From NCBI GenBank assembly GCA_016868535.1, contig VGGQ01000004.1:1-44958 (forward strand): DNA of 44,958 nucleotides. Reading direction: 5' to 3'. The notes under the pieces are model-generated. The model made no database searches. It was given only the letters and a program-made list of their open reading frames with translations, and was not told the DNA's origin. Of the stretch, positions 1-11,852 are shown one piece after another. The stretch is from Bacteroidota bacterium (GTDB lineage: Bacteria; Bacteroidota; Bacteroidia; NS11-12g; UBA955). The position numbers were made by a program, and so were the translations under genes. Every line of letters begins with the position of its first letter. Position 1 is the first letter of the stretch.

Positions 1-9
1 TTTACACTT

Positions 10-86
10 GCCACTAACTTGCCTATACCCGCTACTTTATATCGCCAATAACACCTTTTTGGGTGTATTGGCGCTACTCAGTAGCG
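10..86 (-). mobile_element. attI-like recombination site A (core GTTAGTGGC on - strand, preceded by hairpin CGCCAATA..TATTGGCG)
   Basis: - strand reads ATAGGCAAGTTAGTGGC (core 18-10), matching ATAAGYAAGTTA at 7005 and 9901; inverted repeat 43-73 with outer CGCTAC/GTAGCG (30-35/81-86). Confidence 0.45.
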
Positions 87-120
87 TATTATTTTCAAAC
101 ATACTGAACAAATTAAGTTT

Positions 121-297
121 TCACAAATTGTCGAACGGACTGTGGATGTTGCGCAAACCTTCGGTGCTTACATTAAGATTCTTTGTCATCCATACTTGGT
201 TGCCAATGGTTATTTCTGTTGATGCACCGCCACCACAAGAACTTACCATCATTGCAGTCAACACAACTGCACTTAAAATTAAGCTTACATGTTTCAT
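121..297 (-). pseudogene. Truncated FISUMP-domain (Fibrobacter major paralogous family) lipoprotein
   Basis: Lipobox VSSC, then TIGNQVWMTKNLNVST, the typical FISUMP N-terminal motif; similarity is lost at ~165 and the frame stops at 121. Confidence 0.7.
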
Positions 298-308
298 TTT
301 TATATGTT

Positions 309-404
309 TCAAATTGTCAAATAAATTAACTTGGGTTTGCCGCAGCTTACTATTAAAGCAGAAAGCAATAAAGTGGTAGCTAATATGGAGAATAGTTTTT
401 TCAT
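309..404 (-). pseudogene. Orphan lipoprotein signal-peptide remnant (31 aa)
   Basis: MKKLFSILATTLLLSALIVSC followed by only 10 residues. Confidence 0.45.
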
Positions 405-469
405 ACAACAAACATAGCAATTACCAGTTGTTTTAAAAGTACTTACGTGTAATAGAATAAAAACTCCCA

Positions 470-550
470 CCCGACCATCCATTAAGTCAGGATCGTTGTT
501 TCCAAACAAAACGATTTCATTGAATTCGCCTGGTTGTTTGGAAACAGGCG
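470..550. other. Structured non-coding element with a perfect 13-bp inverted repeat and alternative hairpins
   Basis: TGTTTCCAAACAA (497-509) / TTGTTTGGAAACA (534-546); each arm also lies inside its own stem (ATCGTT/AACGAT, CGCCTG/CAGGCG). Confidence 0.5.
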
Positions 551-773
551 GTGGCTGTTTTGCAATTCAACATCGGATAGATCTTTAATTTTTTTACATG
601 ATAGACATAAACATGCCTAGACAAAAATAACTTTACAGGGATGCACAGCATCGGCTATATATATTGTTTCCATGAACAGAATTTATCAACATCCATACAA
701 ACCAAAAATAATGTTTCACTTAATATTTGACGGATATTCTAATTAGTAGTATATCAGCAATATGTAATAGACA

Positions 774-794
774 GTTCGATTCCTGGCGGGACCA
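774..794 (+). mobile_element. tRNA 3'-end fragment (probable att site of an integrative element)
   Basis: GTTCGATTCCTGGCGGGACCA = T-loop, 3' T-stem, 3' acceptor strand and discriminator; no 5' half upstream; integrase remnant 110 bp downstream. Confidence 0.75.
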
Positions 795-904
795 CAAAGT
801 AACTTTCGTTTAATTTCGGATTTTTTCTAAATCCTTATTTATCAACATTTTCCATTTCAGAGGTTTTTACAATCTGCCGGGAACTTTCGAAATTTGTTTC
901 ACCT

Positions 905-1072
905 GAGACAAAATCTATCAGTGTTACCTGCTTCCTGAAGCTGCTGAAAACCGACCTAAATCATTAGGTAACTATGGGCAGAATTGTCTATGATCAAAAG
1001 AAAGTACAATTCACCACCGGTATCAGGGTGACAGCAGATACTTGGGACCCTAAAAACCAGCACCTTGAATAA
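905..1072 (+). pseudogene. Tyrosine integrase remnant (Bacteroidota arm-DNA-binding N-terminal domain only)
   Basis: Frame reads ETKSISVTCFLKLLKTDLNH*VTMGRIVYDQKKVQFTTGIRVTADTWDPKNQHLE*; the RI..K...FxTGI.V....WD.K.Q pattern fits Arm-DNA-bind_5; internal stop, no catalytic domain. Confidence 0.7.
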
Positions 1073-1346
1073 CATTCAAGTCGAAAGAATAATCCGTTAC
1101 CGTATAAAACACGGTATGACTATGCAAGAAGTATCAAGAAGAGCCGTTGATGCGTTTTTTAAAATTGAGTATAAAAAAGCTTTATAAAATGCATATTATT
1201 TTAACGCTCTAATAATCTTTTGAATATTTTGGCATCCAGCAACAATATTTGATGTATTCTGTATAGATTTGCCAGTATTAGAAAATTTCAGCGGTCAAAT
1301 TTTATGTGGTTGCTCATAAATCGGGAGACTAATAAATTACGGAACC

Positions 1347-1832
1347 ATGGACCAAGTCAGAAATATAACATTCCAACCTAATACAAACGATTGTATTGTT
1401 TGTGGTTCAAAGTTTGTTTACAAGAGACAATCAATGAAGTATTGCTCTAATGCTTGTAAATGCCAAGCATATCAAGCAAGGCAAAACAATAAACAATCAA
1501 TAAAAGGATTGGACAAAACCCTGGCATTTATGGTTGGTTCCAGGAGTGTCTCAAAGCAAAACATTGTTCCGAAACAAACAACAAAAAGTGGCACATCTTC
1601 AATCGTTCAAGAACAAAGGCAAACAATCAATCAGCAAAAGGCACACATAGAGCACCTTCATAAACAAGCCGAGCAGTTTGTTCAAATGGTTACCTATGAA
1701 ACTAACAAACAGATTAAAGACGCATTAGAACAAGCAAAAAAAGCAATCGCCATGTGCAAGGCATGTATGAAGGAAAATGACAGGCTAAAAGCTGAAAACA
1801 TTAAACTCAAAACGAAGGTTCCTACTAACTAA
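1347..1832 (+). CDS. Hypothetical protein, N-terminal Cys zinc-finger-like motif and C-terminal coiled coil
   Basis: CIVCGSKF..KYCSNACKC; Q/K/E-rich helical tail; TAGATTTG -7 box at 1264-1271. Confidence 0.7.
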   Translation: MDQVRNITFQPNTNDCIVCGSKFVYKRQSMKYCSNACKCQAYQARQNNKQSIKGLDKTLAFMVGSRSVSKQNIVPKQTTKSGTSSIVQEQRQTINQQKAHIEHLHKQAEQFVQMVTYETNKQIKDALEQAKKAIAMCKACMKENDRLKAENIKLKTKVPTN

Positions 1833-2029
1833 AAGAGGTCAAGCTTTTTTATTACTGCGTAATAATGTAATAAAAAATTGATAAAAGTTGACTTTTTTAT
1901 TGACAACGTTAGCGTTAACGCATAACTATTTTTTTAGATGTATTGATTGAAAAAGCAGATGGAAAGAAGAGCCGTTTTTTGTGCATAAAAAGTAGCTTTT
2001 TTTTGTTATGAATATAAAATAAAAAACAT

Positions 2030-2037
2030 TATTTTTG
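2030..2037 (+). promoter_or_regulatory. Bacteroidota -7 promoter box for the kor operon
   Basis: TATTTTTG matches TAnnTTTG, 30 nt before the TTG start. Confidence 0.5.
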
Positions 2038-2067
2038 GAACTATTGAAATTTTAAAAAAAGAAGAAT

Positions 2068-3855
2068 TTGAAACCAACAGATATCAACAATCCGGAGTAT
2101 TTTCATAAAGTAGTCGATTGTCAACACGCTTGTCCGGCACACACTCCTGTTCCCGAATACATAAGGCTTATAGCAGCAGAAAAATATACGGAAGCGTATA
2201 TGATCAATTGGGATTCCAATGTGTTTCCCGGTGTATTGGGTCGTACCTGCGACCGCCCTTGTGAACCTGCCTGCCGCAGAGGGAGGGTAGAGGAGGAGCC
2301 GGTTGCGATTTGCCGTTTAAAACGTGTTGCCGCAGATAATAAAGGCGATGTAAAAAAATATATGCCACAAGGCCCTTTTACATCCAATGGGAAAAAAGTG
2401 GCATTGGTTGGTGCAGGACCTGCTTCCCTTACTGTTGCGCGTGATCTGGCCCCATTAGGTTATGAATTACATTTATATGATGAGCAAAAATCAGGTGGTG
2501 GATTCATGCGTAGTCAGATCCCATCCTTCCGTTTGCCGGAAACTGTTTTAAATGAAGAAGTAAACTTTATTCTTGATCTGGGAATTCACACACATTTCAA
2601 TCAATATGTATCCAGCTTAAAAGAATTATTAAATAAAGATTATGATGCAGTATTTGTGGGGTCGGGTGCTCCAAAGGGTCGTGATCTGGATATTTCTGGT
2701 CGTAAAGAAGCTGCAGCTAATATTCACATCGGTATCACTTGGCTCGCAAATGTAGCGTTTGAGCATACTAAATCCATCGGTAAAAAGGTAATTGTATTAG
2801 GCGGAGGAAATACCGCAATGGATTGTTGCAGAACCTCCCGCAGGTTAGGTGGTGAGCAAGTAAAAGTGATTGTTCGTAGTCCTTTTGCGGAAATGAAAGC
2901 ATCACCTTGGGAAAAGGAAGATGCGATCCATGAGGATATTCCAATTATAGATAACCATGTACCCAAATCATTTGTGGTGGAAAATGGAAAATTAAAAGGA
3001 ATGACTTTCGAAAAAGTACAAGCTGTTTATGAAAATGGAAAACGTAAACTAGTTCCTGTTGGTGGTGAAGATGTATTTTTTGAAGCAGATGATGTATTGG
3101 TGGCTATCGGACAAGAAAATAGTTTTCCCTGGATAGAGCGTGATCTAGGAATTGAATTCGATAAATGGGATATGCCCTTAGTGAATGAAACTACGTTTGT
3201 TTCAACCAATAAAAAAGTATTTTTTGGTGGTGATGCTGCATTCGGACCAAAGAATGTAATCACTGCTGTGGCTCAAGGTCATCAAGCTGCAATTTCTATT
3301 GATTTAATGTGTAGAAATGAAGATCTGCATAAACGCCCTGCCCCGTATGTGAATTTAGTGACCCAAAAAATGGGAATTCATGAATGGGCTTACGATAGTG
3401 CTGTAGTAACAGATAAACGATATGCTGTTCCACAAGCAGATAAAAAAGTTACTTTATCTAACAGAAAAAAAGAAGTTGAATTAGGATTTGACGGTTTAAC
3501 CGGATTTAAAGAAGCTGAACGTTGCTTGAATTGTGATGTTCAAACTGTTTTTTCAACCAGCAAATGCATAGAGTGTGATGCTTGTGTGGATGTTTGTCCT
3601 ACTTCCTGTATCACCTTTACAGTAAATGCGGAAGAAGCAGATCTTCGTGCTAAGCTGAAAGTGCCGGCAAAAAATTTAAATCAAGATTTATATGTGTCGG
3701 ATGTGTTACCAACTGCACGTGTAATGATAAAAGATGAAAATGTTTGTTTGCATTGCGGATTGTGTGCAGAACGCTGTCCTACATCTGCATGGGATATGCA
3801 AAAGTTTTTTTACAATACAACAAAGGCACATACAGGTTGTGTTTCGCATACTTAA
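2068..3855 (+). CDS. GltD-like FAD/NAD(P)-dependent oxidoreductase with N-terminal Fe-S clusters and C-terminal 2x[4Fe-4S] ferredoxin (KorC-like)
   Basis: CQHACPAH, GRTCDRPCEPAC, GAGPAS, GGGNTAMD, CIECDACVDVCP, CLHCGLCAERCP. Confidence 0.93.
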   Translation: MKPTDINNPEYFHKVVDCQHACPAHTPVPEYIRLIAAEKYTEAYMINWDSNVFPGVLGRTCDRPCEPACRRGRVEEEPVAICRLKRVAADNKGDVKKYMPQGPFTSNGKKVALVGAGPASLTVARDLAPLGYELHLYDEQKSGGGFMRSQIPSFRLPETVLNEEVNFILDLGIHTHFNQYVSSLKELLNKDYDAVFVGSGAPKGRDLDISGRKEAAANIHIGITWLANVAFEHTKSIGKKVIVLGGGNTAMDCCRTSRRLGGEQVKVIVRSPFAEMKASPWEKEDAIHEDIPIIDNHVPKSFVVENGKLKGMTFEKVQAVYENGKRKLVPVGGEDVFFEADDVLVAIGQENSFPWIERDLGIEFDKWDMPLVNETTFVSTNKKVFFGGDAAFGPKNVITAVAQGHQAAISIDLMCRNEDLHKRPAPYVNLVTQKMGIHEWAYDSAVVTDKRYAVPQADKKVTLSNRKKEVELGFDGLTGFKEAERCLNCDVQTVFSTSKCIECDACVDVCPTSCITFTVNAEEADLRAKLKVPAKNLNQDLYVSDVLPTARVMIKDENVCLHCGLCAERCPTSAWDMQKFFYNTTKAHTGCVSHT

Positions 3856-3861
3856 AATAAT

Positions 3862-3950
3862 TCCGTGAAACTATGTGTTCACTCTGGTTAACTCCGTAAC
3901 GATAAAATATTACACAGAGATCACTGAGGAGGCCCAGAGAACCACAAGGA
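3862..3950. repeat. Degenerate REP-like intergenic palindrome (CACAGAG-type units)
   Basis: TCCGTGAAACTATGTGTTCACTCTGG ... TTACACAGAGATCACTGAGGAGGCCCAGAGAACCACAAGGA; ~9-nt periodic imperfect inverted units. Confidence 0.45.
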
Positions 3951-3971
3951 AAAAATATTAAAAGAAAAATT

Positions 3972-5813
3972 ATGTCATTAAAAACAGATAAGGTAAACGA
4001 TTTCGTGGTACGATTTGCAAATGTGAATGGAACGGGTTCTGCCAGTGCAAACTTTCTTTTTACAAAATCAATTTTCAGGATGGGAATTCCTGTAACACCC
4101 AAAAATATTTTTCCTTCTAACATACAAGGTTTACCAACTTGGTATGAAGTTCGTGTAAATGAACAAGGATACCTTGGCCGCAGAGAAGGTATTGATCTGA
4201 TGGTGGCGGTGAATCCTCAGAGTATGTTGAAAGATGTGCAAGATGTTAAGATAGGAGGGTACTTTTTATACGATAGCTCAAAACCTTTACATAGTGAGTA
4301 CATCCGTAGAGACATCAATTACCTCCCTATTCCTTTGATGCAAATGTGCAATGAAGCATATACGGATGCTCGCCAACGACAATTATTTAAAAACATTATT
4401 TACGTTGGTGTGCTTTCCGCTTTGTTAGACATTGAGTTTAAAATACTGGAAGATCTGTTGGCGGAACAATTTAAAGGAAAAGAAAAATTAATTCCGGCCA
4501 ACGTAAAAGCATTGCAATTGGGGGTTGATTATGTTCACAAAAATTTTAAATATCCATTAGAAATTCGTGTTGAAAGAAGAAATTTGGTGGGTGATTGTAT
4601 AATGATGGAAGGTAATGCTGCCTGTGGTTTAGGAGCTGTTTATGCCGGAGCTACAGTAGCTGCATGGTATCCTATCACCCCATCTACATCAGTTGTTGAA
4701 GCATTTAGTGACTATGCTGCCGAACTTCGTGTGGACAAAATTACCGGTAAAAATAATGTAGCAATTATTCAGGCTGAAGATGAGTTAGCAGCCATAGGAA
4801 TCGTAATTGGCGCCAACTGGAATGGCGCACGTTCATTTACTGCAACCAGCGGACCCGGTGTTTCATTGATGAATGAATTTTTAGGCCTGGCTTATTTTGC
4901 AGAAATACCAACAGTATTAATTGATGTACAACGAACAGGCCCATCAACCGGAATGCCTACACGTACACAACAATCAGATATATTGGAGGCAGCTTATGCA
5001 TCACATGGTGATACAAAACACGTTTTACTTTTCCCATCAACACCAACCGAATGTTTTGAAATGACTGCTGATTCATTTGATCTTGCAGAACAATTGCAAA
5101 CACCGGTTATTTTAATGACTGATTTGGATCTTGGAATGAATGATCACGTTACAAAAGCATTGAGCTGGGATGATAAACGTGGTTACAAAAGAGGCAAAGT
5201 ATTGGATGCTGCCGCTCTTGAAAAATTAGAAAAATTCGGGCGCTATTTGGATGTAGATAAAGATGGAATTCCTTATCGTACCATTCCCGGAACACATCCT
5301 ACAAGAGGTTCATATTTTACACGAGGAACTTCACGTGATGAATATGCAGTTTATACTGAGGATAGTGCCGCATATAAACGTAATATGGATCGTTTGATCC
5401 GTAAATGGAACACAGCCAAAGATATGGTGCCTGCACCTCAGCTATATCAGAAAAAAAATAAATCCAAATATGGTATTTTATTTTTTGGAACTTCTACCTA
5501 TTCTGCACAGGAAGCAATGGATATTTTAGAAGAAGAAGATGTAATTGTTGATGCTATTCGTTTAAAAGCATTTCCATTTAATCAAACAGTTGAGGACTTT
5601 ATAAATTCACATGATAAGGTATTTGTAATAGAACAAAATCGCGATGCACAATTAAAAAGTTTAATGATGATTGAATTACACGCTGATCCTAATAAATTGA
5701 TCTCTGTGTTGAATTATGATGGTATGCCGATAACAGCTGATAACATTTTGAAACAGATTACATCGAATTTATCAGAAAATAATATTAACCGCAAAGTCGC
5801 AGAGGTGCGATGA
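3972..5813 (+). CDS. korA: 2-oxoacid:acceptor oxidoreductase alpha subunit
   Basis: Fused gamma domain (NGTGSAS), YPITPS, QAEDELAA, TSGPG, QRTGPSTGMPT. Confidence 0.95.
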   Translation: MSLKTDKVNDFVVRFANVNGTGSASANFLFTKSIFRMGIPVTPKNIFPSNIQGLPTWYEVRVNEQGYLGRREGIDLMVAVNPQSMLKDVQDVKIGGYFLYDSSKPLHSEYIRRDINYLPIPLMQMCNEAYTDARQRQLFKNIIYVGVLSALLDIEFKILEDLLAEQFKGKEKLIPANVKALQLGVDYVHKNFKYPLEIRVERRNLVGDCIMMEGNAACGLGAVYAGATVAAWYPITPSTSVVEAFSDYAAELRVDKITGKNNVAIIQAEDELAAIGIVIGANWNGARSFTATSGPGVSLMNEFLGLAYFAEIPTVLIDVQRTGPSTGMPTRTQQSDILEAAYASHGDTKHVLLFPSTPTECFEMTADSFDLAEQLQTPVILMTDLDLGMNDHVTKALSWDDKRGYKRGKVLDAAALEKLEKFGRYLDVDKDGIPYRTIPGTHPTRGSYFTRGTSRDEYAVYTEDSAAYKRNMDRLIRKWNTAKDMVPAPQLYQKKNKSKYGILFFGTSTYSAQEAMDILEEEDVIVDAIRLKAFPFNQTVEDFINSHDKVFVIEQNRDAQLKSLMMIELHADPNKLISVLNYDGMPITADNILKQITSNLSENNINRKVAEVR

Positions 5814-5848
5814 AAATAATCTCTGCGCCTTAGCGTATACGGGGTAAA
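5788..5848. repeat. REP-like hairpin overlapping the korA stop
   Basis: ACCGCAAAGTCGCAGAG ... CTCTGCGCCTTAGCG imperfect inverted repeat. Confidence 0.45.
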
Positions 5849-5869
5849 AAAATAAACAAAAAAAAGACT

Positions 5870-6922
5870 ATGAGTTACATTAGACCCAAATTCCGCCACC
5901 CTGAGTTACCTAAAAATAAATTAGGTTATACCATTGATTATTATGAGGGTTCTCTTTCTACACTATGTGCTGGTTGCGGACACGATTCAATTACTGCCGG
6001 TATTATACAGGCGGCATTCGAATTAAATATTGAACCTCACAAGCTTGCAAAACTTTCAGGGATCGGTTGTTCGTCTAAAACACCCGCTTATTTATTAAGC
6101 AACTCTCATGGATTTAATTCTGTTCATGGACGTATGCCTTCTGTTGCTACCGGAGCCAATTTAGCGAATCGTGATTTGATTTATTTTGGTGTTTCCGGTG
6201 ATGGTGATTCTGCAAGTATTGGAATGGGACAATTTGTTCACGTGATCAGAAGAAGTTTAAACATGACCTACATTGTAATGAACAATGGTTGTTATGGATT
6301 AACAAAAGGTCAAGACTCTGCAACTGCTGATCAGGGTTCAAAAAATAAAACCGGACACATAAATTTTTTTGAATCCATCGATCTGGCGAGTTTAGCAATT
6401 GAACTGGGTGCAACATTTGTGGCTCAAAGTTTTTCAGGCGATAAAGCTCAATTAGTGCCGCTAGTGAAAGCTGCGATGAAACATCCTGGCTTTGCATTCA
6501 TCAATGTAATTTCACCTTGTGTAACATTCAATAATAATGTGGGTTCCACCAAATCATACGATTATGTTCGTCATCATACAGAAGCAACTGCTACCCTTGA
6601 TTTTGTTCCGGAAATGGCTGAGATCACAACTAGTTATGATGAAGGAACTGTAAAGCATGTAAAGATGCATGATGGTACTACAATCAAATTGAATAAACTT
6701 GCACAAGAGTGGGATCCATTGGATAGACAATCTGCAGTTAATGCAGTGATTAATGCAAAAGCGAAAAATGAAATTCTTACCGGACTATTGTATATGAATC
6801 CTGATGCAAATGATTTACATCATTTGATTAAAACTAGCGATACTCCTTTAAATTCACTAACCAAAGATGTTCTTTGTCCCGGCTCATCAGTATTGAAAGA
6901 AATTAATGCAGGGTTGAGGTAA
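5870..6922 (+). CDS. korB: 2-oxoacid:ferredoxin oxidoreductase beta subunit (TPP-binding)
   Basis: LCAGCGH, SGIGCS, HGR, GDGD...NNGCYGLTKGQ, SPCVTFN. Confidence 0.95.
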   Translation: MSYIRPKFRHPELPKNKLGYTIDYYEGSLSTLCAGCGHDSITAGIIQAAFELNIEPHKLAKLSGIGCSSKTPAYLLSNSHGFNSVHGRMPSVATGANLANRDLIYFGVSGDGDSASIGMGQFVHVIRRSLNMTYIVMNNGCYGLTKGQDSATADQGSKNKTGHINFFESIDLASLAIELGATFVAQSFSGDKAQLVPLVKAAMKHPGFAFINVISPCVTFNNNVGSTKSYDYVRHHTEATATLDFVPEMAEITTSYDEGTVKHVKMHDGTTIKLNKLAQEWDPLDRQSAVNAVINAKAKNEILTGLLYMNPDANDLHHLIKTSDTPLNSLTKDVLCPGSSVLKEINAGLR

Positions 6923-7004
6923 TATAATCAATCGTTATTTTTTATAAGTTTGTCACGAATTGGTCCCGCAATATTAGGATTCGCACCTACTGGGGGATTA
7001 TAGG

Positions 7005-7076
7005 TAACTTGCTTATTGGCGAACAAATTTGCACATATAATCCTCCTAATCAAATATTTTGTGCAACAAAATTGCC
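7005..7076 (-). mobile_element. attI-like recombination site B (near copy of site C)
   Basis: TAACTTGCTTATTGGCG-AACAAATTTGCACATAT-N15-ATATTTTGTGCAA..ATTGCC aligns with 9901-9974. Confidence 0.55.
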
Positions 7077-7129
7077 CCTCTGCAGAGCAAATATACTTGG
7101 ATTTATTACAAAGTCAAAGCCCCCTTAGC

Positions 7130-7420
7130 GTCCCTTAATTGCCGTTCAACCCGTTATAGAATCGCCCACAAAGGCCCCATTTACATGTTTGATTCGCTGG
7201 GCGACCACAACGCATTCAACACTTGTATATCGCCTTTAAACATGTCTTCAGACCAGCATACAGTCTGTCGTTGGCTTCTCAAATGCCTTGTTCAGCCGCA
7301 GGACGCAATGAATCGGCGTTTCCAATGTCAGTAATCTGCGCTTTTTCGGTGCTCACTGAGTTGCAGGTTGCCAGTGCTATGGCCAGGCCTAAGGTGAGGG
7401 TCAAAATGGGAATTGTTTTT
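7130..7420 (-). pseudogene. Decayed SnoaL/NTF2-like lipoprotein
   Basis: Signal LAIALATC, then EANDRLYAGL / MFKGDIQVLNALWS / MGP / ITG*TAIK across several stops and frameshifts. Confidence 0.6.
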
Positions 7421-7451
7421 TAATCATTCCGAGTATTTATTTTGGTTAAGG

Positions 7452-7994
7452 TTATTGCACCTTTACGTCGGTGGTGGCCACAGCCACTATTTCGTTGTTC
7501 ATGATCACCGGAACTGCGCGTGTTCTCATCCACACTTCGCCACCTCCGGCATCAAAATAAGGCTTGGTCCAAATGGCATATCCACTGTCTACAGGCATGC
7601 GCAGCCAGGCTTGTTCGTCTATTTTATAGGCCGAGTCGGCCAAGTTTTTCATAGCCAGGGTATCGTTTAGGCGGTACCAATACGGGCTGTAGTAAACCTT
7701 TCCAGCGCTATCCAATAGCGCCACGGTTGCCCCAAAGAAACTCGGCGATTGGGCCGCCAGATAATCCCTTACCCGATTGGAAAGGCCGGTAGAATCAAGG
7801 GGATGGGCCTGCAAATCCACCACAAAGGCGTCCAAAGCAACTTCGTAAGCCAACAACGGATTTCGGTCATTCTCCTTTTTGCATGCCACCAATAGCAGCA
7901 GCGCCAACACAGCTTGGGACATGGTCCGCAGCAATCCTTTTGTTCGGTGGATGGCGGAGCATACTCCGTTCGCAGTCGTTTTCAGTGTTTTCAT
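7452..7994 (-). CDS. Stand-alone Cache/PDC-domain lipoprotein
   Basis: Lipobox LLVAC; WTKPYFDAGGG..MRTRAVPV....IVAVATTDV Cache motif; true start may be the second Met (MSQAV). Confidence 0.8.
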   Translation of the reverse strand: MKTLKTTANGVCSAIHRTKGLLRTMSQAVLALLLLVACKKENDRNPLLAYEVALDAFVVDLQAHPLDSTGLSNRVRDYLAAQSPSFFGATVALLDSAGKVYYSPYWYRLNDTLAMKNLADSAYKIDEQAWLRMPVDSGYAIWTKPYFDAGGGEVWMRTRAVPVIMNNEIVAVATTDVKVQ

Positions 7995-8058
7995 AGCGTT
8001 TAGGAGTTTTGTTCTCGAATATTTCGTGTCAATACATTTTTTTAATTTCTTCTCATAA

Positions 8059-8102
8059 GGCTTTTCGGAATACCCCTCATTTTCTGGAGTGGGTTCTGGA
8101 CT
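8059..8102 (-). repeat. 44-bp intergenic hairpin motif, copy 1
   Basis: 36/44 identical to 9062-9105. Confidence 0.7.
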
Positions 8103-8118
8103 GCGTTTGTTTGCTAAA

Positions 8119-8412
8119 TTATTTGCAATTGCCCATTTCTTTCAATAAGGCTTCAGCAAATTTTTCCTTATCAGAGTCAGAAGTGTATTTCCCTTCCAAT
8201 TCTTTTGATAAACTTTCCGCTTCAGAAGTCAACTTTGTGCTTTCTTCCATTACGGACATATCACCAGATGTTACTCTCTGCATTAGTTTTTGAGCTTTGC
8301 ATTGAAGTTCTGCAACTCTTTTAGCATCTCTTTCAATAGATCCACCTCCGCAGCTTGTTAAAATTGTTGAAGCAAATAAGATTGCTCCGAAAATTGTCAT
8401 TACTTTTCTCAT
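8119..8412 (-). CDS. Small helical lipoprotein, hypothetical
   Basis: Lipobox LTSC; two further Cys (LQC, GNC) could form a disulfide. Confidence 0.8.
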   Translation of the reverse strand: MRKVMTIFGAILFASTILTSCGGGSIERDAKRVAELQCKAQKLMQRVTSGDMSVMEESTKLTSEAESLSKELEGKYTSDSDKEKFAEALLKEMGNCK

Positions 8413-8517
8413 TTTTATATTTTATTAAGAAATATCCATTAAAATTTATCTTCTCTAACCAACTTTGCTGATAGAGGGTCTAAAGATTTGTATTTTGATT
8501 TTTATTATTTCAATTGC

Positions 8518-9033
8518 CTATTTGGATGTAAAACTAAAATCACCCTTTGCAACAATTGAATTGTTCTTTTTGACATTGAAAGTTCCAACAATTTCACCTG
8601 GTACTGAATACTTTGTGAAGGTTATTTCAGCATAGTCGTATGATAAGTCATTACCATTTATCGTTGCCAAAAATTCAAAATCATCTTGGTAGGCCATATA
8701 GTCCCCTCTTGACGTGTATTTCTTATTGATTTTTACGTTTCTGCCTATATGATCTGATGGCCAAATATCAAGATATGCATCATTGCTCACGTCAAAATAA
8801 ACAAAGAGCATTGCTCTATTAGTTGACTGAAACGAAAATGTATTAATAGAGTTTGCGATAGGACTTGTTGTAAAAGTTGCTTTCAGTTTTGCACCGTTTG
8901 TAATCTCTAAATTGAAAGTTCCATTATTTGGGGTTTCCTCCTTTTTACAGCCCGTAAAAATCAATAGTAAAAGTGAAACTAGAAGTAGTTGATTTTTCAA
9001 GATTTTAATCCCATAGTTAAATTTAAATTTCAT
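8518..9033 (-). CDS. Hypothetical lipoprotein
   Basis: Lipobox FTGC followed by KKEE (Bacteroidota surface-export-like signal); beta-rich. Confidence 0.8.
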   Translation of the reverse strand: MKFKFNYGIKILKNQLLLVSLLLLIFTGCKKEETPNNGTFNLEITNGAKLKATFTTSPIANSINTFSFQSTNRAMLFVYFDVSNDAYLDIWPSDHIGRNVKINKKYTSRGDYMAYQDDFEFLATINGNDLSYDYAEITFTKYSVPGEIVGTFNVKKNNSIVAKGDFSFTSK

Positions 9034-9061
9034 TTTGTGTGGTATAATATCCTACTCGTAT

Positions 9062-9105
9062 GGCTTTTCAGAATACGCCCCGTTTTTTAGAGTGGATTCT
9101 GGGCT
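9062..9105 (-). repeat. 44-bp intergenic hairpin motif, copy 2
   Basis: 36/44 identical to 8059-8102; CAGAAT/ATTCTG stem. Confidence 0.7.
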
Positions 9106-9202
9106 CCACTATTAAAGTGCAATAATACTATTTTTTTGTAACATTGAGTGGTCAGCTCTTTGGCTCTCGCAGACCGTCTCGGTTTTTATTTTTTAAACTT
9201 GC

Positions 9203-9341
9203 ACATAACGGTTTCGGGCTTTGCGTTCGGGCGGGCTTTTTAAAACCGTAAACTGTCTGCTTGCACCAACGTTTATTAATTGCTCAAATGTTCATATTCA
9301 CACTGTCCGCCCACTAACGCAAAACCCGTGTTTTAGGGCGT
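9203..9341 (-). mobile_element. attC-like cassette recombination site (long bulged palindrome)
   Basis: Pairs AAC/GTT (9207-9209/9330-9332), CGGG/CCCG, TTTGCGTT/AACGCAAA, GGGCGG/CCGCCC with asymmetric bulges; begins ~17 nt after the GNAT stop and ends in GTTATGT. Confidence 0.7.
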
Positions 9342-9358
9342 TTTTCTTTCATTCATTG

Positions 9359-9844
9359 TTAAGCTAGTTTATAAATAAATTCTTCAATTTCGGTTTGTCG
9401 GGCATTTGCAAAACCTTTGTCTGAACCGATTCTTGTAAAACCACATTTTTCTAAAACGTTTTGCGAACCAAAATTGTCAAACGCAACTCGTCCATAAATT
9501 GGTCTATTCGTAACAACGTCAAGAAAGTTTTTTAGTGCATTTGTCGCAATACCTTGTCCCCAATATTTTCTACCAATCCAATATGTGATTTCTGTGTCTC
9601 CTTCCATTACAAATTTTGCAATACTTCCTACGATAACATTGTCAATCAAAATTGTTTGGTTATTTACGGTTGGATCGCTTAATAATTCCGTAAACTTATT
9701 TAGATATGCTGTTTTGTCTGTCGGGTCTTTGGGCATAAATGCCGCCAAATATCCGCCTTCTTTGTCAAGTTGAAATTGAAACAAAGTGTCCAAGTCCGAA
9801 ATTTCAGTTGGTCTAAGTTTTATGTTAAGGTTATTGATTGTCAT
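9359..9844 (-). CDS. GNAT N-acetyltransferase (RimJ/RimL family), cassette-like gene
   Basis: EITYWIGRKYWGQGIAT motif A; DNFGSQNVLEKCGF motif B. Confidence 0.92.
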   Translation of the reverse strand: MTINNLNIKLRPTEISDLDTLFQFQLDKEGGYLAAFMPKDPTDKTAYLNKFTELLSDPTVNNQTILIDNVIVGSIAKFVMEGDTEITYWIGRKYWGQGIATNALKNFLDVVTNRPIYGRVAFDNFGSQNVLEKCGFTRIGSDKGFANARQTEIEEFIYKLA

Positions 9845-9892
9845 TGTTGTCTAATCACTATGAAATTATTTTTTATTTACGGTCGTCCCAAA

Positions 9893-9974
9893 ATGCCCCA
9901 TAACTTACTTATTGGCGCAACAAAGTTGCACATATTTTCTTACTAGGTGGATATATTGTGCAATTGGTATTGCC
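9893..9974 (-). mobile_element. attI-like recombination site C at the start of the GNAT cassette
   Basis: - strand TTGCACAATATAT-N15-ATATGTGCAA..CGCCAATAAGTAA|GTTATGGGGCAT; near copy at 7005-7076. Confidence 0.6.
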
Positions 9975-10051
9975 TATTTTATCCTTTTTCGGGGTTGTTT
10001 TTTGTTTATAAATCATCGAAAGGACTTTTGATTCTTTGTAAGAAAGAACCT

Positions 10052-10136
10052 TATATTTGTACATGCGCAATAAACTGAATACATCCAAATCTGAGGTATA
10101 GAGGAAGGTTTATAGCGTGTACAAGCTAGTTATGGG
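10052..10136 (+). mobile_element. Promoter box, inverted repeat and GTTATGGG core (attI-like site D) before the LamG gene
   Basis: TATATTTG (10052-10059); TTGTACA..CGCAATAAAC / GTTTATAGCG.TGTACAA; core at 10129-10136. Confidence 0.45.
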
Positions 10137-10189
10137 TAAGCTTGATGAAAATTGAAAGAAATATTAAACAATAAAAACAAAGAGACAAA

Positions 10190-11221
10190 ATGAAAAAAAT
10201 AAGTTTCCTTTTACACGGGGTGTTTGCGTTCGGTTTTGTAACTGCAAGTTTGGCACAAGTGCCAAAATATGTACCGACCAATGGGCTTGTTGGGTGGTGG
10301 CCGTTTAATGGGAATGCAAATGACCAGAGTGTGAATAGACATAACGGAACTGTGACAGGGGCAACATTGGTTTCAGACCGCTTTGGAAATAACTCAAGTG
10401 CCTATTTTTTTAATTACAAACATTGGGTTCCGGGTTCAGGTGGTGACGAAATTTATATTCCTTACACTTCTATTCTTGCTCCAAAAAACATCACTGTCTC
10501 CGTTTGGGCCTATAGAACTTCGGCGGGATACCCAAATCAAAACCTCAATATTATTAATCGCTTTGAGGAAGGCTTTAGCACTCCGAACGGACAAACTTGG
10601 GCATTAGGTGTGGGCGCAGATCCTGAGACAACAATATACTGTGTTGTATATCAAGCAGCACTGAATAATAATCAGGCTAATTTAGAGAGCAACGGTCCAT
10701 ATCTAAGCTTAAATACCTGGAACAATATTGTTATGACCTTTGATGGTTTGGCACTGAAACAATTCATCAATGGTGTCATGATCGACTCTGTTTCTGCAAA
10801 TGGATTAACGCTGAATACAACAGGTACCTCAGGAATTTCTATTGGTGTTTCCGATCAAGCGAGTGGCATTTGGTCACCATTTGACGGAAAAATCGACGAC
10901 ATTGGCATTTGGAACCGTGCCTTATCCCAAAAGGAAATAACAGATTTGTATAATGCAAATAATGTGGGTATAAATGAAAACACACAAGATAATTTATTAT
11001 CATTATATCCAAATCCTGCTCAAAGCCAAATCAACATAAATGCAGACATCAAACTTATCGGTGAGATTTACTCCATCTATGATAATAACGGAAAACTTGC
11101 ATTAACAGGAAAGCTTAACTCTCAAAACACAACAATTGACTTGGGCAATTTATCAGGTGGGTTGTATATGTTCAGTGTTGGAGAAAATATGAAGCAGTCA
11201 TTTAAAGTGATTAAAGAATAA
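10190..11221 (+). CDS. LamG-like jellyroll protein with T9SS type A C-terminal sorting domain
   Basis: Signal peptide; VPTNGLVGWWPFNGNAND; FDGKIDDIGIWNRALS; LYPNPA...GLYM..KVIKE. Confidence 0.92.
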   Translation: MKKISFLLHGVFAFGFVTASLAQVPKYVPTNGLVGWWPFNGNANDQSVNRHNGTVTGATLVSDRFGNNSSAYFFNYKHWVPGSGGDEIYIPYTSILAPKNITVSVWAYRTSAGYPNQNLNIINRFEEGFSTPNGQTWALGVGADPETTIYCVVYQAALNNNQANLESNGPYLSLNTWNNIVMTFDGLALKQFINGVMIDSVSANGLTLNTTGTSGISIGVSDQASGIWSPFDGKIDDIGIWNRALSQKEITDLYNANNVGINENTQDNLLSLYPNPAQSQININADIKLIGEIYSIYDNNGKLALTGKLNSQNTTIDLGNLSGGLYMFSVGENMKQSFKVIKE

Positions 11222-11257
11222 ACCAGCCCCTTATAGCGTTTAAGCGCAACCCTTCGG

Positions 11258-11301
11258 GTGTGGGCGCTGTTGTAGCAAACGGTGATGATGGAAACCTTCA
11301 C
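11258..11301 (-). pseudogene. N-terminal stub of a GT2 glycosyltransferase (WcaE-like) cut by the island edge
   Basis: GTG overlapping the wcaF stop reads VKVSIITVCYNSAHT, then similarity ends. Confidence 0.75.
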
Positions 11302-11852
11302 GCTTCTATAATTCTTTCTCTGACAGCAACCGCAGGGTTTCCGCTGTAAATTTTGTAGGCATCCAGATTGGCTGTGGCTATGCTGCCGGCGCTGAGTACC
11401 GCGTGAGAATTGCAGGTCACGCCCGGACAAACCACGGCTTTTGCGCCAATCCACACGCCGTTTTCGAGGGTAATATCGCCCACCATCAGATCAGATGAGG
11501 GTTTATGGTAGTTGTGGTTGCCGCACAAAAGAAGTGCCCCCTGCGAAATGCAGCAGTTGCTGCCGATACTTACCTTTCCCAGATTGTCAATCCATACTCC
11601 TTCCCCCAGCCATGGGTGTTCCCCGATACTCAGTTTCCATGGGTATTTTACATTCACCAGGGGTTTGATGACGACACCTTGGCCAATTTTAGCGCCAAAC
11701 AAGCGCAAAAGTCCTCTCCTCCATGCATTGCCGGGAAAGAAGGACATGAGTAAAAAAGAATTGCAGACATGCCACAGGGCCCTTAACACCCCGTTCCTTC
11801 CGGGTTGGTACCAGCGGTTGTTAAAAAGAGCGTGTTGGGTTTGGCCTTGCAT
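11298..11852 (-). CDS. wcaF: WcaF-family polysaccharide acetyltransferase (hexapeptide repeats)
   Basis: LRLFGAKIG, NVKYPWKLSIG, LCGNHNY, YSGNPA. Confidence 0.9.
   Translation of the reverse strand: MQGQTQHALFNNRWYQPGRNGVLRALWHVCNSFLLMSFFPGNAWRRGLLRLFGAKIGQGVVIKPLVNVKYPWKLSIGEHPWLGEGVWIDNLGKVSIGSNCCISQGALLLCGNHNYHKPSSDLMVGDITLENGVWIGAKAVVCPGVTCNSHAVLSAGSIATANLDAYKIYSGNPAVAVRERIIEA

Follow-up and report, generated by a model that had tools for sequence, protein, structure and literature searches.

Candidate attI-type sites of an integron-like cassette system beside decayed recombinase genes in a Bacteroidota genome

A 44,958-nt stretch of a Bacteroidota genome (GenBank assembly GCA_016868535.1, contig VGGQ01000004.1; the whole stretch is here called the window) raises the question of what two similar sequences, at 7005-7076 (site A) and 9901-9974 (site B), represent on either side of a 2.9-kb block of genes. 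An earlier note, made from the letters of the window, had taken them for protein-bound primary recombination sites resembling attI, with accessory binding repeats and a crossover at a TAAC (GTTA) core. We followed the two sites through their own genome (G000; 1.9 Mb, 163 contigs, the window being contig C4), through relatives of the same family and through other Bacteroidota. Our analysis indicates that A and B are probably attI-type primary sites of a Bacteroidota integron-like cassette system, which were orphaned as the adjoining recombinase genes decayed.

Written as an IUPAC pattern, the consensus of the earlier note has exact matches in the whole window at 7005-7066 and 9901-9963 only, both on the plus strand, and none in 100 dinucleotide-preserving shuffles (two found against none expected). 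In a global alignment of 7005-7076 with 9901-9974 the copies are identical in 56 of 74 columns; one indel of 1 nt follows TTATTGGCG and another follows GTGCAA, and the mismatches fall mostly within the 15-nt spacer between the inverted arms, TTGCACATAT and ATATnTTGTGCAA, both of which are preserved in A and B. The likeness of the two copies stops at TAAC/GTTA, and the sequences left of TAAC are not related. Two sites with a shared consensus, inverted arms kept around a diverged spacer and an abrupt end at the core had all been claimed before, and all three stand. The conserved unit is longer than had been thought, about 105 nt, and in B it extends to the stop codon (10006-10008) of a decayed integrase gene. 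Three such modules occur in the window:

9901-10005, minus strand: attI-type module B, 105 nt from the decayed integrase stop codon to the presumed crossover junction ...AAGTTA at 9901-9904; model score 80.6 bits; site B as first described (9901-9974) is its outer 74 nt
7005-7102, minus strand: attI-type module A, including site A as first described (7005-7076); model score 60 bits; a TATATTTG box at 7083-7090 on the cassette strand
15-120, minus strand: third attI-type module, of another subtype (arms CGCTAC/GTAGCG), ending ...GCAAGTTA at 15-18

The contig begins 14 nt past the junction of the third module, a near-identical copy of which is present on contig C133, and this repeat is probably the cause of the assembly break. 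Further site copies in the same genome lie on C10, C133 and C30. No Rfam family matched A or B at its gathering score, nor at E values up to 10 over 6900-10200, and an identity with an Rfam RNA family was dropped.

The relatives of these sites have one constant and one variable side. A sequence model made from 14 copies was searched against 125 genomes of the same family and gave 16 sites above 40 bits, which we call strong, in eight of them; weaker matches are doubtful. Eighteen sites (16 strong, 2 weak) were mapped with TAAC set leftmost, and 119 open reading frames (ORFs) were annotated around them. The same gene, sucB, lies downstream of the site in four genomes, and three further sites precede trxB, which makes the side 3' of the site the conserved one. 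The first genes on the GTTA side of the four sucB sites all differ: a cyclic-nucleotide (cNMP)-binding protein, a KAS III-like protein, a DndB-like protein and a 107-aa ORF. At 14 of the 18 sites this side has a minus-strand ORF whose start is no more than 150 nt from the junction (one of these ORFs has only 64 aa), and the rest comprise two convergent housekeeping genes, one integrase fragment and one absent flank. The genes found there (GNAT, glyoxalase/bleomycin-resistance-like, RibD_C, DinB_2, ParE/RelB, DoxX, pirin) are the usual cargo of integron cassettes; they are small and co-oriented, with attC-like palindromes between them. The arm side would be constant and the sequence beyond GTTA variable because cassettes enter at the core. 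A tRNA-Arg gene was seen at two of the loci, once at the far end of a cassette array (L049, G019:C40, 7071-7143) and once 55 nt from the inner side of the site (L056, G020:C5, 2020-2094).

The spacers between the cassette genes carry long imperfect palindromes that start with ...AAC and end with GTT..., with examples in seven relatives; the detector was our own duplex-energy scan and not the published attC covariance model. Among 39 palindrome candidates in the window, the strongest, and the sole one above the strict threshold, closes the first cassette of B:

9203-9336, minus strand: attC-like imperfect palindrome, with ...AAAAC at the 5' end pairing with GTTAT... at the 3' end; duplex energy -36.7 kcal/mol

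A near-identical attC occurs in G019, another genome that bears the sites. If cassettes are inserted by recombination of attI with attC, the start of a cassette should mirror the 5' end of its own attC, because the first bases inserted derive from the attC 3' end. We therefore took the 5' end of the nearest palindrome, in reverse complement, and compared it with the first 14 nt past the junction. Where that palindrome lies within 1 kb (five sites), 13, 13, 11 (site B), 10 and 8 of the 14 positions are identical; where it is more than 3 kb away (four sites), the identities are 8, 7, 4 and 4 of 14. Two fusions bear on the same point. In G006, at the glnA-trxB locus, a 161-aa cassette and an attC stand between the site and glnA, both absent from G000, and this attC ends at G|TTAGCGG, joined to the stop region of glnA. 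The other fusion is on contig C133, where AAG|TTG marks the joint between a site of the A/B type and the final 44 codons of a tyrosine recombinase gene. This fragment has 82% identity to an intact 372-aa gene of the genus-mate G004, and we read the fusion as a footprint left when recombination took place at a secondary GTT site within an integrase gene. On account of the mirroring at the junctions and the two fusions we place the strand exchange at G|TTA. The crossover at the core, as proposed in the earlier note, agrees with these footprints, the break behaving as an attI x attC crossover point; likewise, the related genomes display the variable genes on the GTTA side and the sharp break at TAAC/GTTA for which the note had suggested looking.

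On C133 the fused integrase end is followed by the own type-1 site of that gene and a cassette start (2981-3290, locus L066). In the window, the start of the second cassette (GTTATGTGCAAGTTT, minus strand, 9198-9209) resembles the inner arm ATATGTGCAAnTTT of A and B (9925-9935 and 7027-7037); it may be that one protein surface binds both arm half-sites and attC ends, or that the likeness is due to chance.

Intact counterparts of the arrangement are found elsewhere in the phylum. Relatives of the integrase occur in 20 of the 125 genomes of the family, and at least 580 stretches of a species-genome collection encode such relatives, including those from Flavobacterium, Chitinophaga, Pedobacter, Algoriphagus and Bacteroidales. 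At all ten family loci the integrase and the first ORF of 150 aa or more that lies downstream point in the same direction, and at eight of the ten at least one strong palindrome follows. Across 80 loci of named Bacteroidota, 69 palindromes lie in 164,428 bp downstream of the integrase (0.42 per kb) compared to ten in 248,000 bp upstream (0.04 per kb), which is a roughly tenfold higher density. The module motif TAYA..RGTTR was sought within 230 nt of the integrase stop codon at the 68 of these 80 loci that have at least 150 nt downstream; 53 of the 68 have it, at a median of 106 nt past the stop, compared to four of 68 in a control stretch. The crossover region of many loci reads TAAAC-AA-GTTA, that is, an inverse core, a short spacer and the core. 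An alignment of 46 sites was made from 43 of the 53 motif sites and the three window sites (L119, L120, L122, L149, L151, L152, L161, L168, L178 and L185 were left out as duplicate, misplaced or at an unusual distance). A and B can be aligned over their full length with the sites linked to integrases, the columns A.A....AGTT at the junction are invariant, and AGTT is present in 46 of 46. Among the loci without the motif, a subgroup (L112, L121, L142, L146, L147, L161, L186) has a gene starting MSNIKLFESK... some 30-50 nt past the integrase stop.

Some of these features would also be expected if the site were the end (att) of a mobile element that carries the integrase, the GTTA side being its chromosomal target with no captured cassettes. 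Integrase and module are multi-copy (two nearly identical copies in G022), at 12 of the 80 loci the sequence downstream of the integrase is shorter than 150 nt and many contigs break off a little past the module, and units of integrase tail plus site stand in unrelated contexts. We nevertheless regard such an element as very improbable: at the orthologous sucB and trxB loci it is the side of the integrase remnant that is conserved and the GTTA side that varies, the GTTA side consists of co-oriented genes and attC palindromes whose tenfold enrichment is confined to downstream DNA, and a second element end was not seen upstream of the integrases, where no systematic search was made. Ends of the IS200/IS605 type and att sites of large serine recombinases, which the hairpin and inverted arms had brought to mind, were dropped after the attC palindromes and the integrase tails were found.

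In the part of the module upstream of the core, a central palindrome is accompanied by two arms, each some 15 nt long. From locus to locus the arms have wholly different sequences (CGCTAC, CGAAAC, GTATGA and TGCAAC, for example), yet they stay inverted repeats. When the 46 sites are modelled as one long hairpin, 68% of the cells are paired and the covariation is 0.51, compared to 0.12-0.16 in slid controls; three local hairpins give 64% and 0.42, compared to 0.12-0.15, and in both models none of 500 shuffles reached the observed value. RNAalifold alone gave six covarying pairs, and the hairpin of the third window site (15-120) folds well (z -5.2). The accessory binding repeats of the earlier note are thus real and strongly covarying, while their binding by a protein is a conjecture: the integrase would bind the arms, perhaps through its extra N-terminal domain.

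The arms are inverted, and on the conserved side of eight of the 18 mapped sites there is a co-directional gene at a distance of 160-1600 nt. One could therefore think of a transcription-factor operator that serves a regulon (sucB, trxB and a LamG protein secreted by the type IX secretion system, T9SS) and has no tie to recombination. This we find hardly credible, given a conserved unit of about 105 nt with a sharp edge on one side, the integrase tails that flank it and its place after integrase stop codons throughout the phylum; half-sites that differ wholly between loci and yet remain palindromic are unlike a regulon operator. Alternatively, the module might mainly be an expression element, with a promoter and a structured leader or terminator between the integrase and the downstream genes, its sharp edge being the end of the leader. 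A TAnnTTTG box, which we take to be the -7 element of Bacteroidota promoters, stands within 60 nt of the integrase stop at 30 of the 53 motif loci and also in A, the arms covary as a hairpin does, and the module would be transcribed into the cassettes. Site B has no such box, and an expression role leaves unexplained why the sequence past GTTA mirrors the attC 5' end of the first cassette, why fusions to glnA and to an integrase gene occur at G|TT, and why AGTT forms invariant columns. As the main function of the module, expression is in our opinion unlikely, and the two roles are compatible. A promoter as the principal explanation was also set aside for B by eye, where the -33/-7 spacing that we assume for Bacteroidota could not be fitted on either strand.

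The recombinases that adjoin the intact modules were compared with integron integrases and their relatives. All five intact proteins scored 203-209 bits with TIGR02249, against a cut-off of 265, and were matched as two separate stretches; none of the 125 family genomes exceeded that cut-off. With NF040815, named 'site-specific tyrosine recombinase/integron integrase' (cut-off 220 bits), four of the five pass (224.7, 232.9, 228.1 and 223.5 bits) and one fails (213.0 bits), all five being integrases of relatives and none a gene of the window. In the alignment with IntI4 (2a3v), residues 79-251 of the query correspond to 8-180 of the chain and residues 271-348 to 242-319; chain residues 181-241 are skipped, and as the query has only 19 residues there, about 42 are missing. 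The alignment with XerA (5hxy), the best match in sequence and fold, is unbroken. Pfam recognises Phage_int_SAM_4 and Phage_integrase, and no family in the first 70-115 residues. A fold search with an AlphaFold 2 model (mean predicted local distance difference test 81.9) ranks XerA and IntI4 first, and the model aligns with full-length lambda integrase over about 350 columns at a template modelling (TM) score of 0.5, a faint hint that the N-terminal domain might be an arm-binding domain. By these alignments the enzyme lacks the IntI-specific insertion and is no canonical IntI: the system would be integron-like, yet its recombinase fails the test that defines IntI.

In the window itself, this family is represented by decayed 3' ends. 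The C-terminal motif of the tail at B, SPFDDL, recurs in the intact integrases, and decayed copies of SPFD.L followed by a stop codon lie on the minus strand at 10006-10074, at 121-174 and possibly at about 7103:

10006-10074, minus strand: decayed 3' end of a Xer/IntI-like integrase gene beside B, ...FIAHVQI*GSFLQRIKSPFDDL*, with an internal stop; the remainder of the gene is absent
121-174, minus strand: decayed integrase 3' end beside the third site, VSTEGLRNIHSPFDNL followed by a stop; tblastn match at 124-174
7103-7125, minus strand: possible last trace of an integrase 3' end beside A, with GFDFV instead of SPFDDL; weak and doubtful

A tblastn search with five integrases detected the tail at 124-174 and the one on C133; those beside B and A were not detected by it, the B tail having been read from the translation. 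Because such tails adjoin the sites, we regard A and B as first described as the outer part of a module that starts at the integrase stop codon. The neighbouring tyrosine recombinase that the earlier note had anticipated is therefore represented by intact genes beside the same module in other Bacteroidota, and here by decayed 3' remnants only.

The intact form of the system would thus read as follows on one strand: first a gene for a Xer/IntI-like tyrosine recombinase of 330-390 aa; then an attI module of about 105 nt with two covarying palindromic arms around a central palindrome and a conserved TATAAnnAAGTTA core; then co-oriented cassettes with attC-like palindromes between them. Circular cassettes would recombine through their attC with the core, strands being exchanged at G|TTA. 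A and B would have been active in the past, with the exchange at G|TT in them as well.

Several results weigh against this view. None of the 16 strong sites adjoins an intact integrase, and a scan for Phage_integrase gave no match in the 119 ORFs that lie up to 4.6 kb from 16 of the 18 mapped sites, or in the 20 window ORFs that were scanned. In the own genome there are just two Xer-like genes, one 416-aa integrase and one fragment, and neither a cognate integrase gene nor an integron integrase above cut-off was found in its assembly. Among five other genomes with the sites, a full-length relative of the integrase is present in G019 only, where the site downstream of it is of a different kind. 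Metagenome-assembled genomes often lose repeats, so that the absence of an integrase from these assemblies is weak evidence. On its GTTA side, A meets a convergent 2-oxoacid:ferredoxin oxidoreductase beta gene at the 3' end of that gene, which is of housekeeping type and no cassette, and the block between A and B is heterogeneous, with only one strong attC. About six of the 53 motif matches look by eye like chance matches in the wrong spot. Folded as single strands, A and B do no better than shuffles (z -0.4 and -1.6), and a hairpin in these two sites taken alone was rejected on the same values. The covariation of the arms fits a folded DNA or RNA as well as four half-sites that co-evolve with a protein and does not discriminate between them, and the arms could serve expression instead of recombination. 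The family lacks the insertion that is needed for canonical IntI activity according to the accessible text of PMC9668308. Finally, what we see of attI x attC recombination catalysed by the integrase is footprints consistent with it. On balance, the primary recombination sites of the earlier note were right in substance, as the variable side, the break and the attC junctions indicate; the picture has to be amended in that the recombinase of the locus has decayed and the enzyme is no canonical IntI. Without an integrase provided in trans, A and B are probably inactive in this genome.

The block between the two sites contains four intact minus-strand ORFs and an interrupted frame, in agreement with the four genes and one pseudogene first described:

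9359-9844, minus strand: GNAT acetyltransferase, 161 aa, first cassette gene at B, starting 57 nt from the junction
8518-9033, minus strand: lipoprotein-like gene, 171 aa, no Pfam family, preceded by a DUF805 RNA motif
8119-8412, minus strand: lipoprotein-like gene, 97 aa, no Pfam family
7452-7994, minus strand: gene with a PDC sensor domain like that of methyl-accepting chemotaxis proteins (MCP), 180 aa, locally of higher G+C (0.48)
about 7100-7404, minus strand: interrupted lipoprotein-like frame

The block is flanked by a 2-oxoacid:ferredoxin oxidoreductase operon on the left and by a gene for a T9SS-secreted LamG-domain protein on the right, and no recombinase gene is found near it among the window ORFs scanned. 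On the cassette strand the order is tail B, site B, the GNAT cassette with its attC, three genes and the broken one without a recognisable attC, the possible trace of tail A, site A, about 6.8 kb of DNA of low G+C, the third tail and site, and the contig end. As a sequence this looks like nested platforms; the example of C133 shows how a unit of tail and site can come to be captured at a GTT within an integrase gene. That the block could excise as a unit through recombination of A with B (attI x attI) finds no support in these results and is no more than a possibility. Rfam DUF805 RNA motifs were found at 9045-9114 (minus strand, 78.7 bits, above the gathering score) and 8042-8111 (minus strand, 38.4 bits, below it), the only two matches in the genome, each directly 5' of a small lipoprotein-like gene. 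Owing to this position a role of the DUF805 RNA as attC was ruled out; the accessible text of the source paper discusses DUF1874 instead (PMC5737381).

The neighbouring DNA is likewise of mixed appearance. The G+C content is 0.34-0.40 over window positions 1-7000 compared to 0.43-0.51 past 11 kb, and a search of 11 further genomes of the genus at E <= 1e-50 gave no match for the oxidoreductase beta gene (5870-6922); the operon, lying between two dead platforms, may have been acquired. A homologue of the LamG protein with a T9SS tail (window 10190-11221) is encoded by the first gene downstream of an integrase in G043 (L099, G043:C1, 1788-2945), and the LamG gene beside B may itself be mobile cargo. 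Window positions 1-11,200 are, in our assessment, a patchwork of captured DNA around three dead platforms.

The stretch is present in 20 lake-water metagenome runs, of which five could be its source, and contigs of four runs were compared. Contigs bridge site A in all four runs, so that this site is no assembly artefact. No contig bridging site B was among those listed, the contigs stopping at 9928-9938. Four contigs of run X19 follow site B and part from the window exactly at 9900/9902; other metagenome contigs share the attC up to about 9199. Summed contig depth increases many-fold at site B, at the attC and at the DUF805 motif of 9045-9114, as would be the case for sequences common to many loci or organisms. 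The joint 7005-9901 was not found among the contigs listed from the four runs; contigs cannot reveal rare forms and are uninformative on excision. A 5- to 10-fold rise of summed depth was also seen over 11128-11328 (the 3' end of the LamG gene and the following spacer), which suggests another sequence common to many loci.

Beyond the window, A and B open onto what seems to be a widespread Bacteroidota integron variant with a non-canonical recombinase and a structured primary site. It is possible, though somewhat short of probable, that these systems form a widespread class largely unseen by integron finders: its Xer/IntI-like enzyme would lack the IntI domain and have an extra N-terminal one, its primary site would be a structured attC-like palindrome with a TATAAnnAAGTTA core just past the integrase stop, and tail-plus-attI modules would be captured at secondary GTT sites, seeding orphan hot spots by housekeeping genes. 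Integrons have been listed for Bacteroidota (PMC8618304, in the accessible text), and complete ones are described as nearly absent from Bacteroidetes in the accessible text of PMC9024848, first with only In0 and then with one in Salinibacter ruber. For most integrons attI has not been identified, as the accessible part of the IntegronFinder paper states (PMC4889954). We found no description of the present system in the open-access literature. Here a defined attI architecture goes together with attC arrays and with a recombinase family that counts at least 580 Bacteroidota relatives. If the enzyme is active, integron-type gene capture would be common across a major environmental and host-associated phylum, it would work without a domain thought essential for the handling of attC, and arrays now classed as lacking an integrase could be reinterpreted as belonging to such systems.

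How, then, do these sites compare with known ones? Like attI1 of class 1 integrons and attIA of Vibrio, the Bacteroidota site is a unique primary site by the integrase gene with insertion at a GTT core and one constant and one variable side. As in canonical attI, there are extra repeats within the constant side and an arrangement of inverse core, short spacer and core at the crossover; attI1 has a comparable one. Unlike canonical attI, the site lies downstream of the integrase stop and on the same strand as the cassettes, its accessory part is an imperfect palindrome of about 70 nt with covarying halves in place of two direct repeats, it has several orphan copies per genome, and its partner enzyme lacks the IntI insertion. 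The order of integrase, attI immediately downstream and then cassettes is shared with the 'reverse integron' of Treponema denticola and with archaeal integrons, as far as the accessible texts describe them. The putative archaeal attIs lie immediately downstream of intI, and the integrases keep the additional domain, according to the accessible text of PMC9668308. Unlike these reverse and archaeal integrases, reported there with the IntI-specific domain, the Bacteroidota enzyme is without it and has an extra N-terminal domain of 70-115 aa.

Integrase-less attC arrays, which sometimes stand beside intI pseudogenes, likewise have attC with no integron integrase nearby (2016, PMC4889954, in the accessible text). 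Unlike them, the window block has one strong attC and retains the attI module and an integrase tail. With a single palindrome above the strict threshold it does not count as an attC cluster that lacks an integron integrase (CALIN), as other arrays in the relatives would. The system also resembles XerA and other Xer recombinases acting at dif, XerA being the best match of the integrase family; in the own genome, Xer-like genes stand separately on C17 and C18. In contrast to a single chromosomal dif system, the Bacteroidota integrases are multi-copy and tied to attC arrays and to the 105-nt module.

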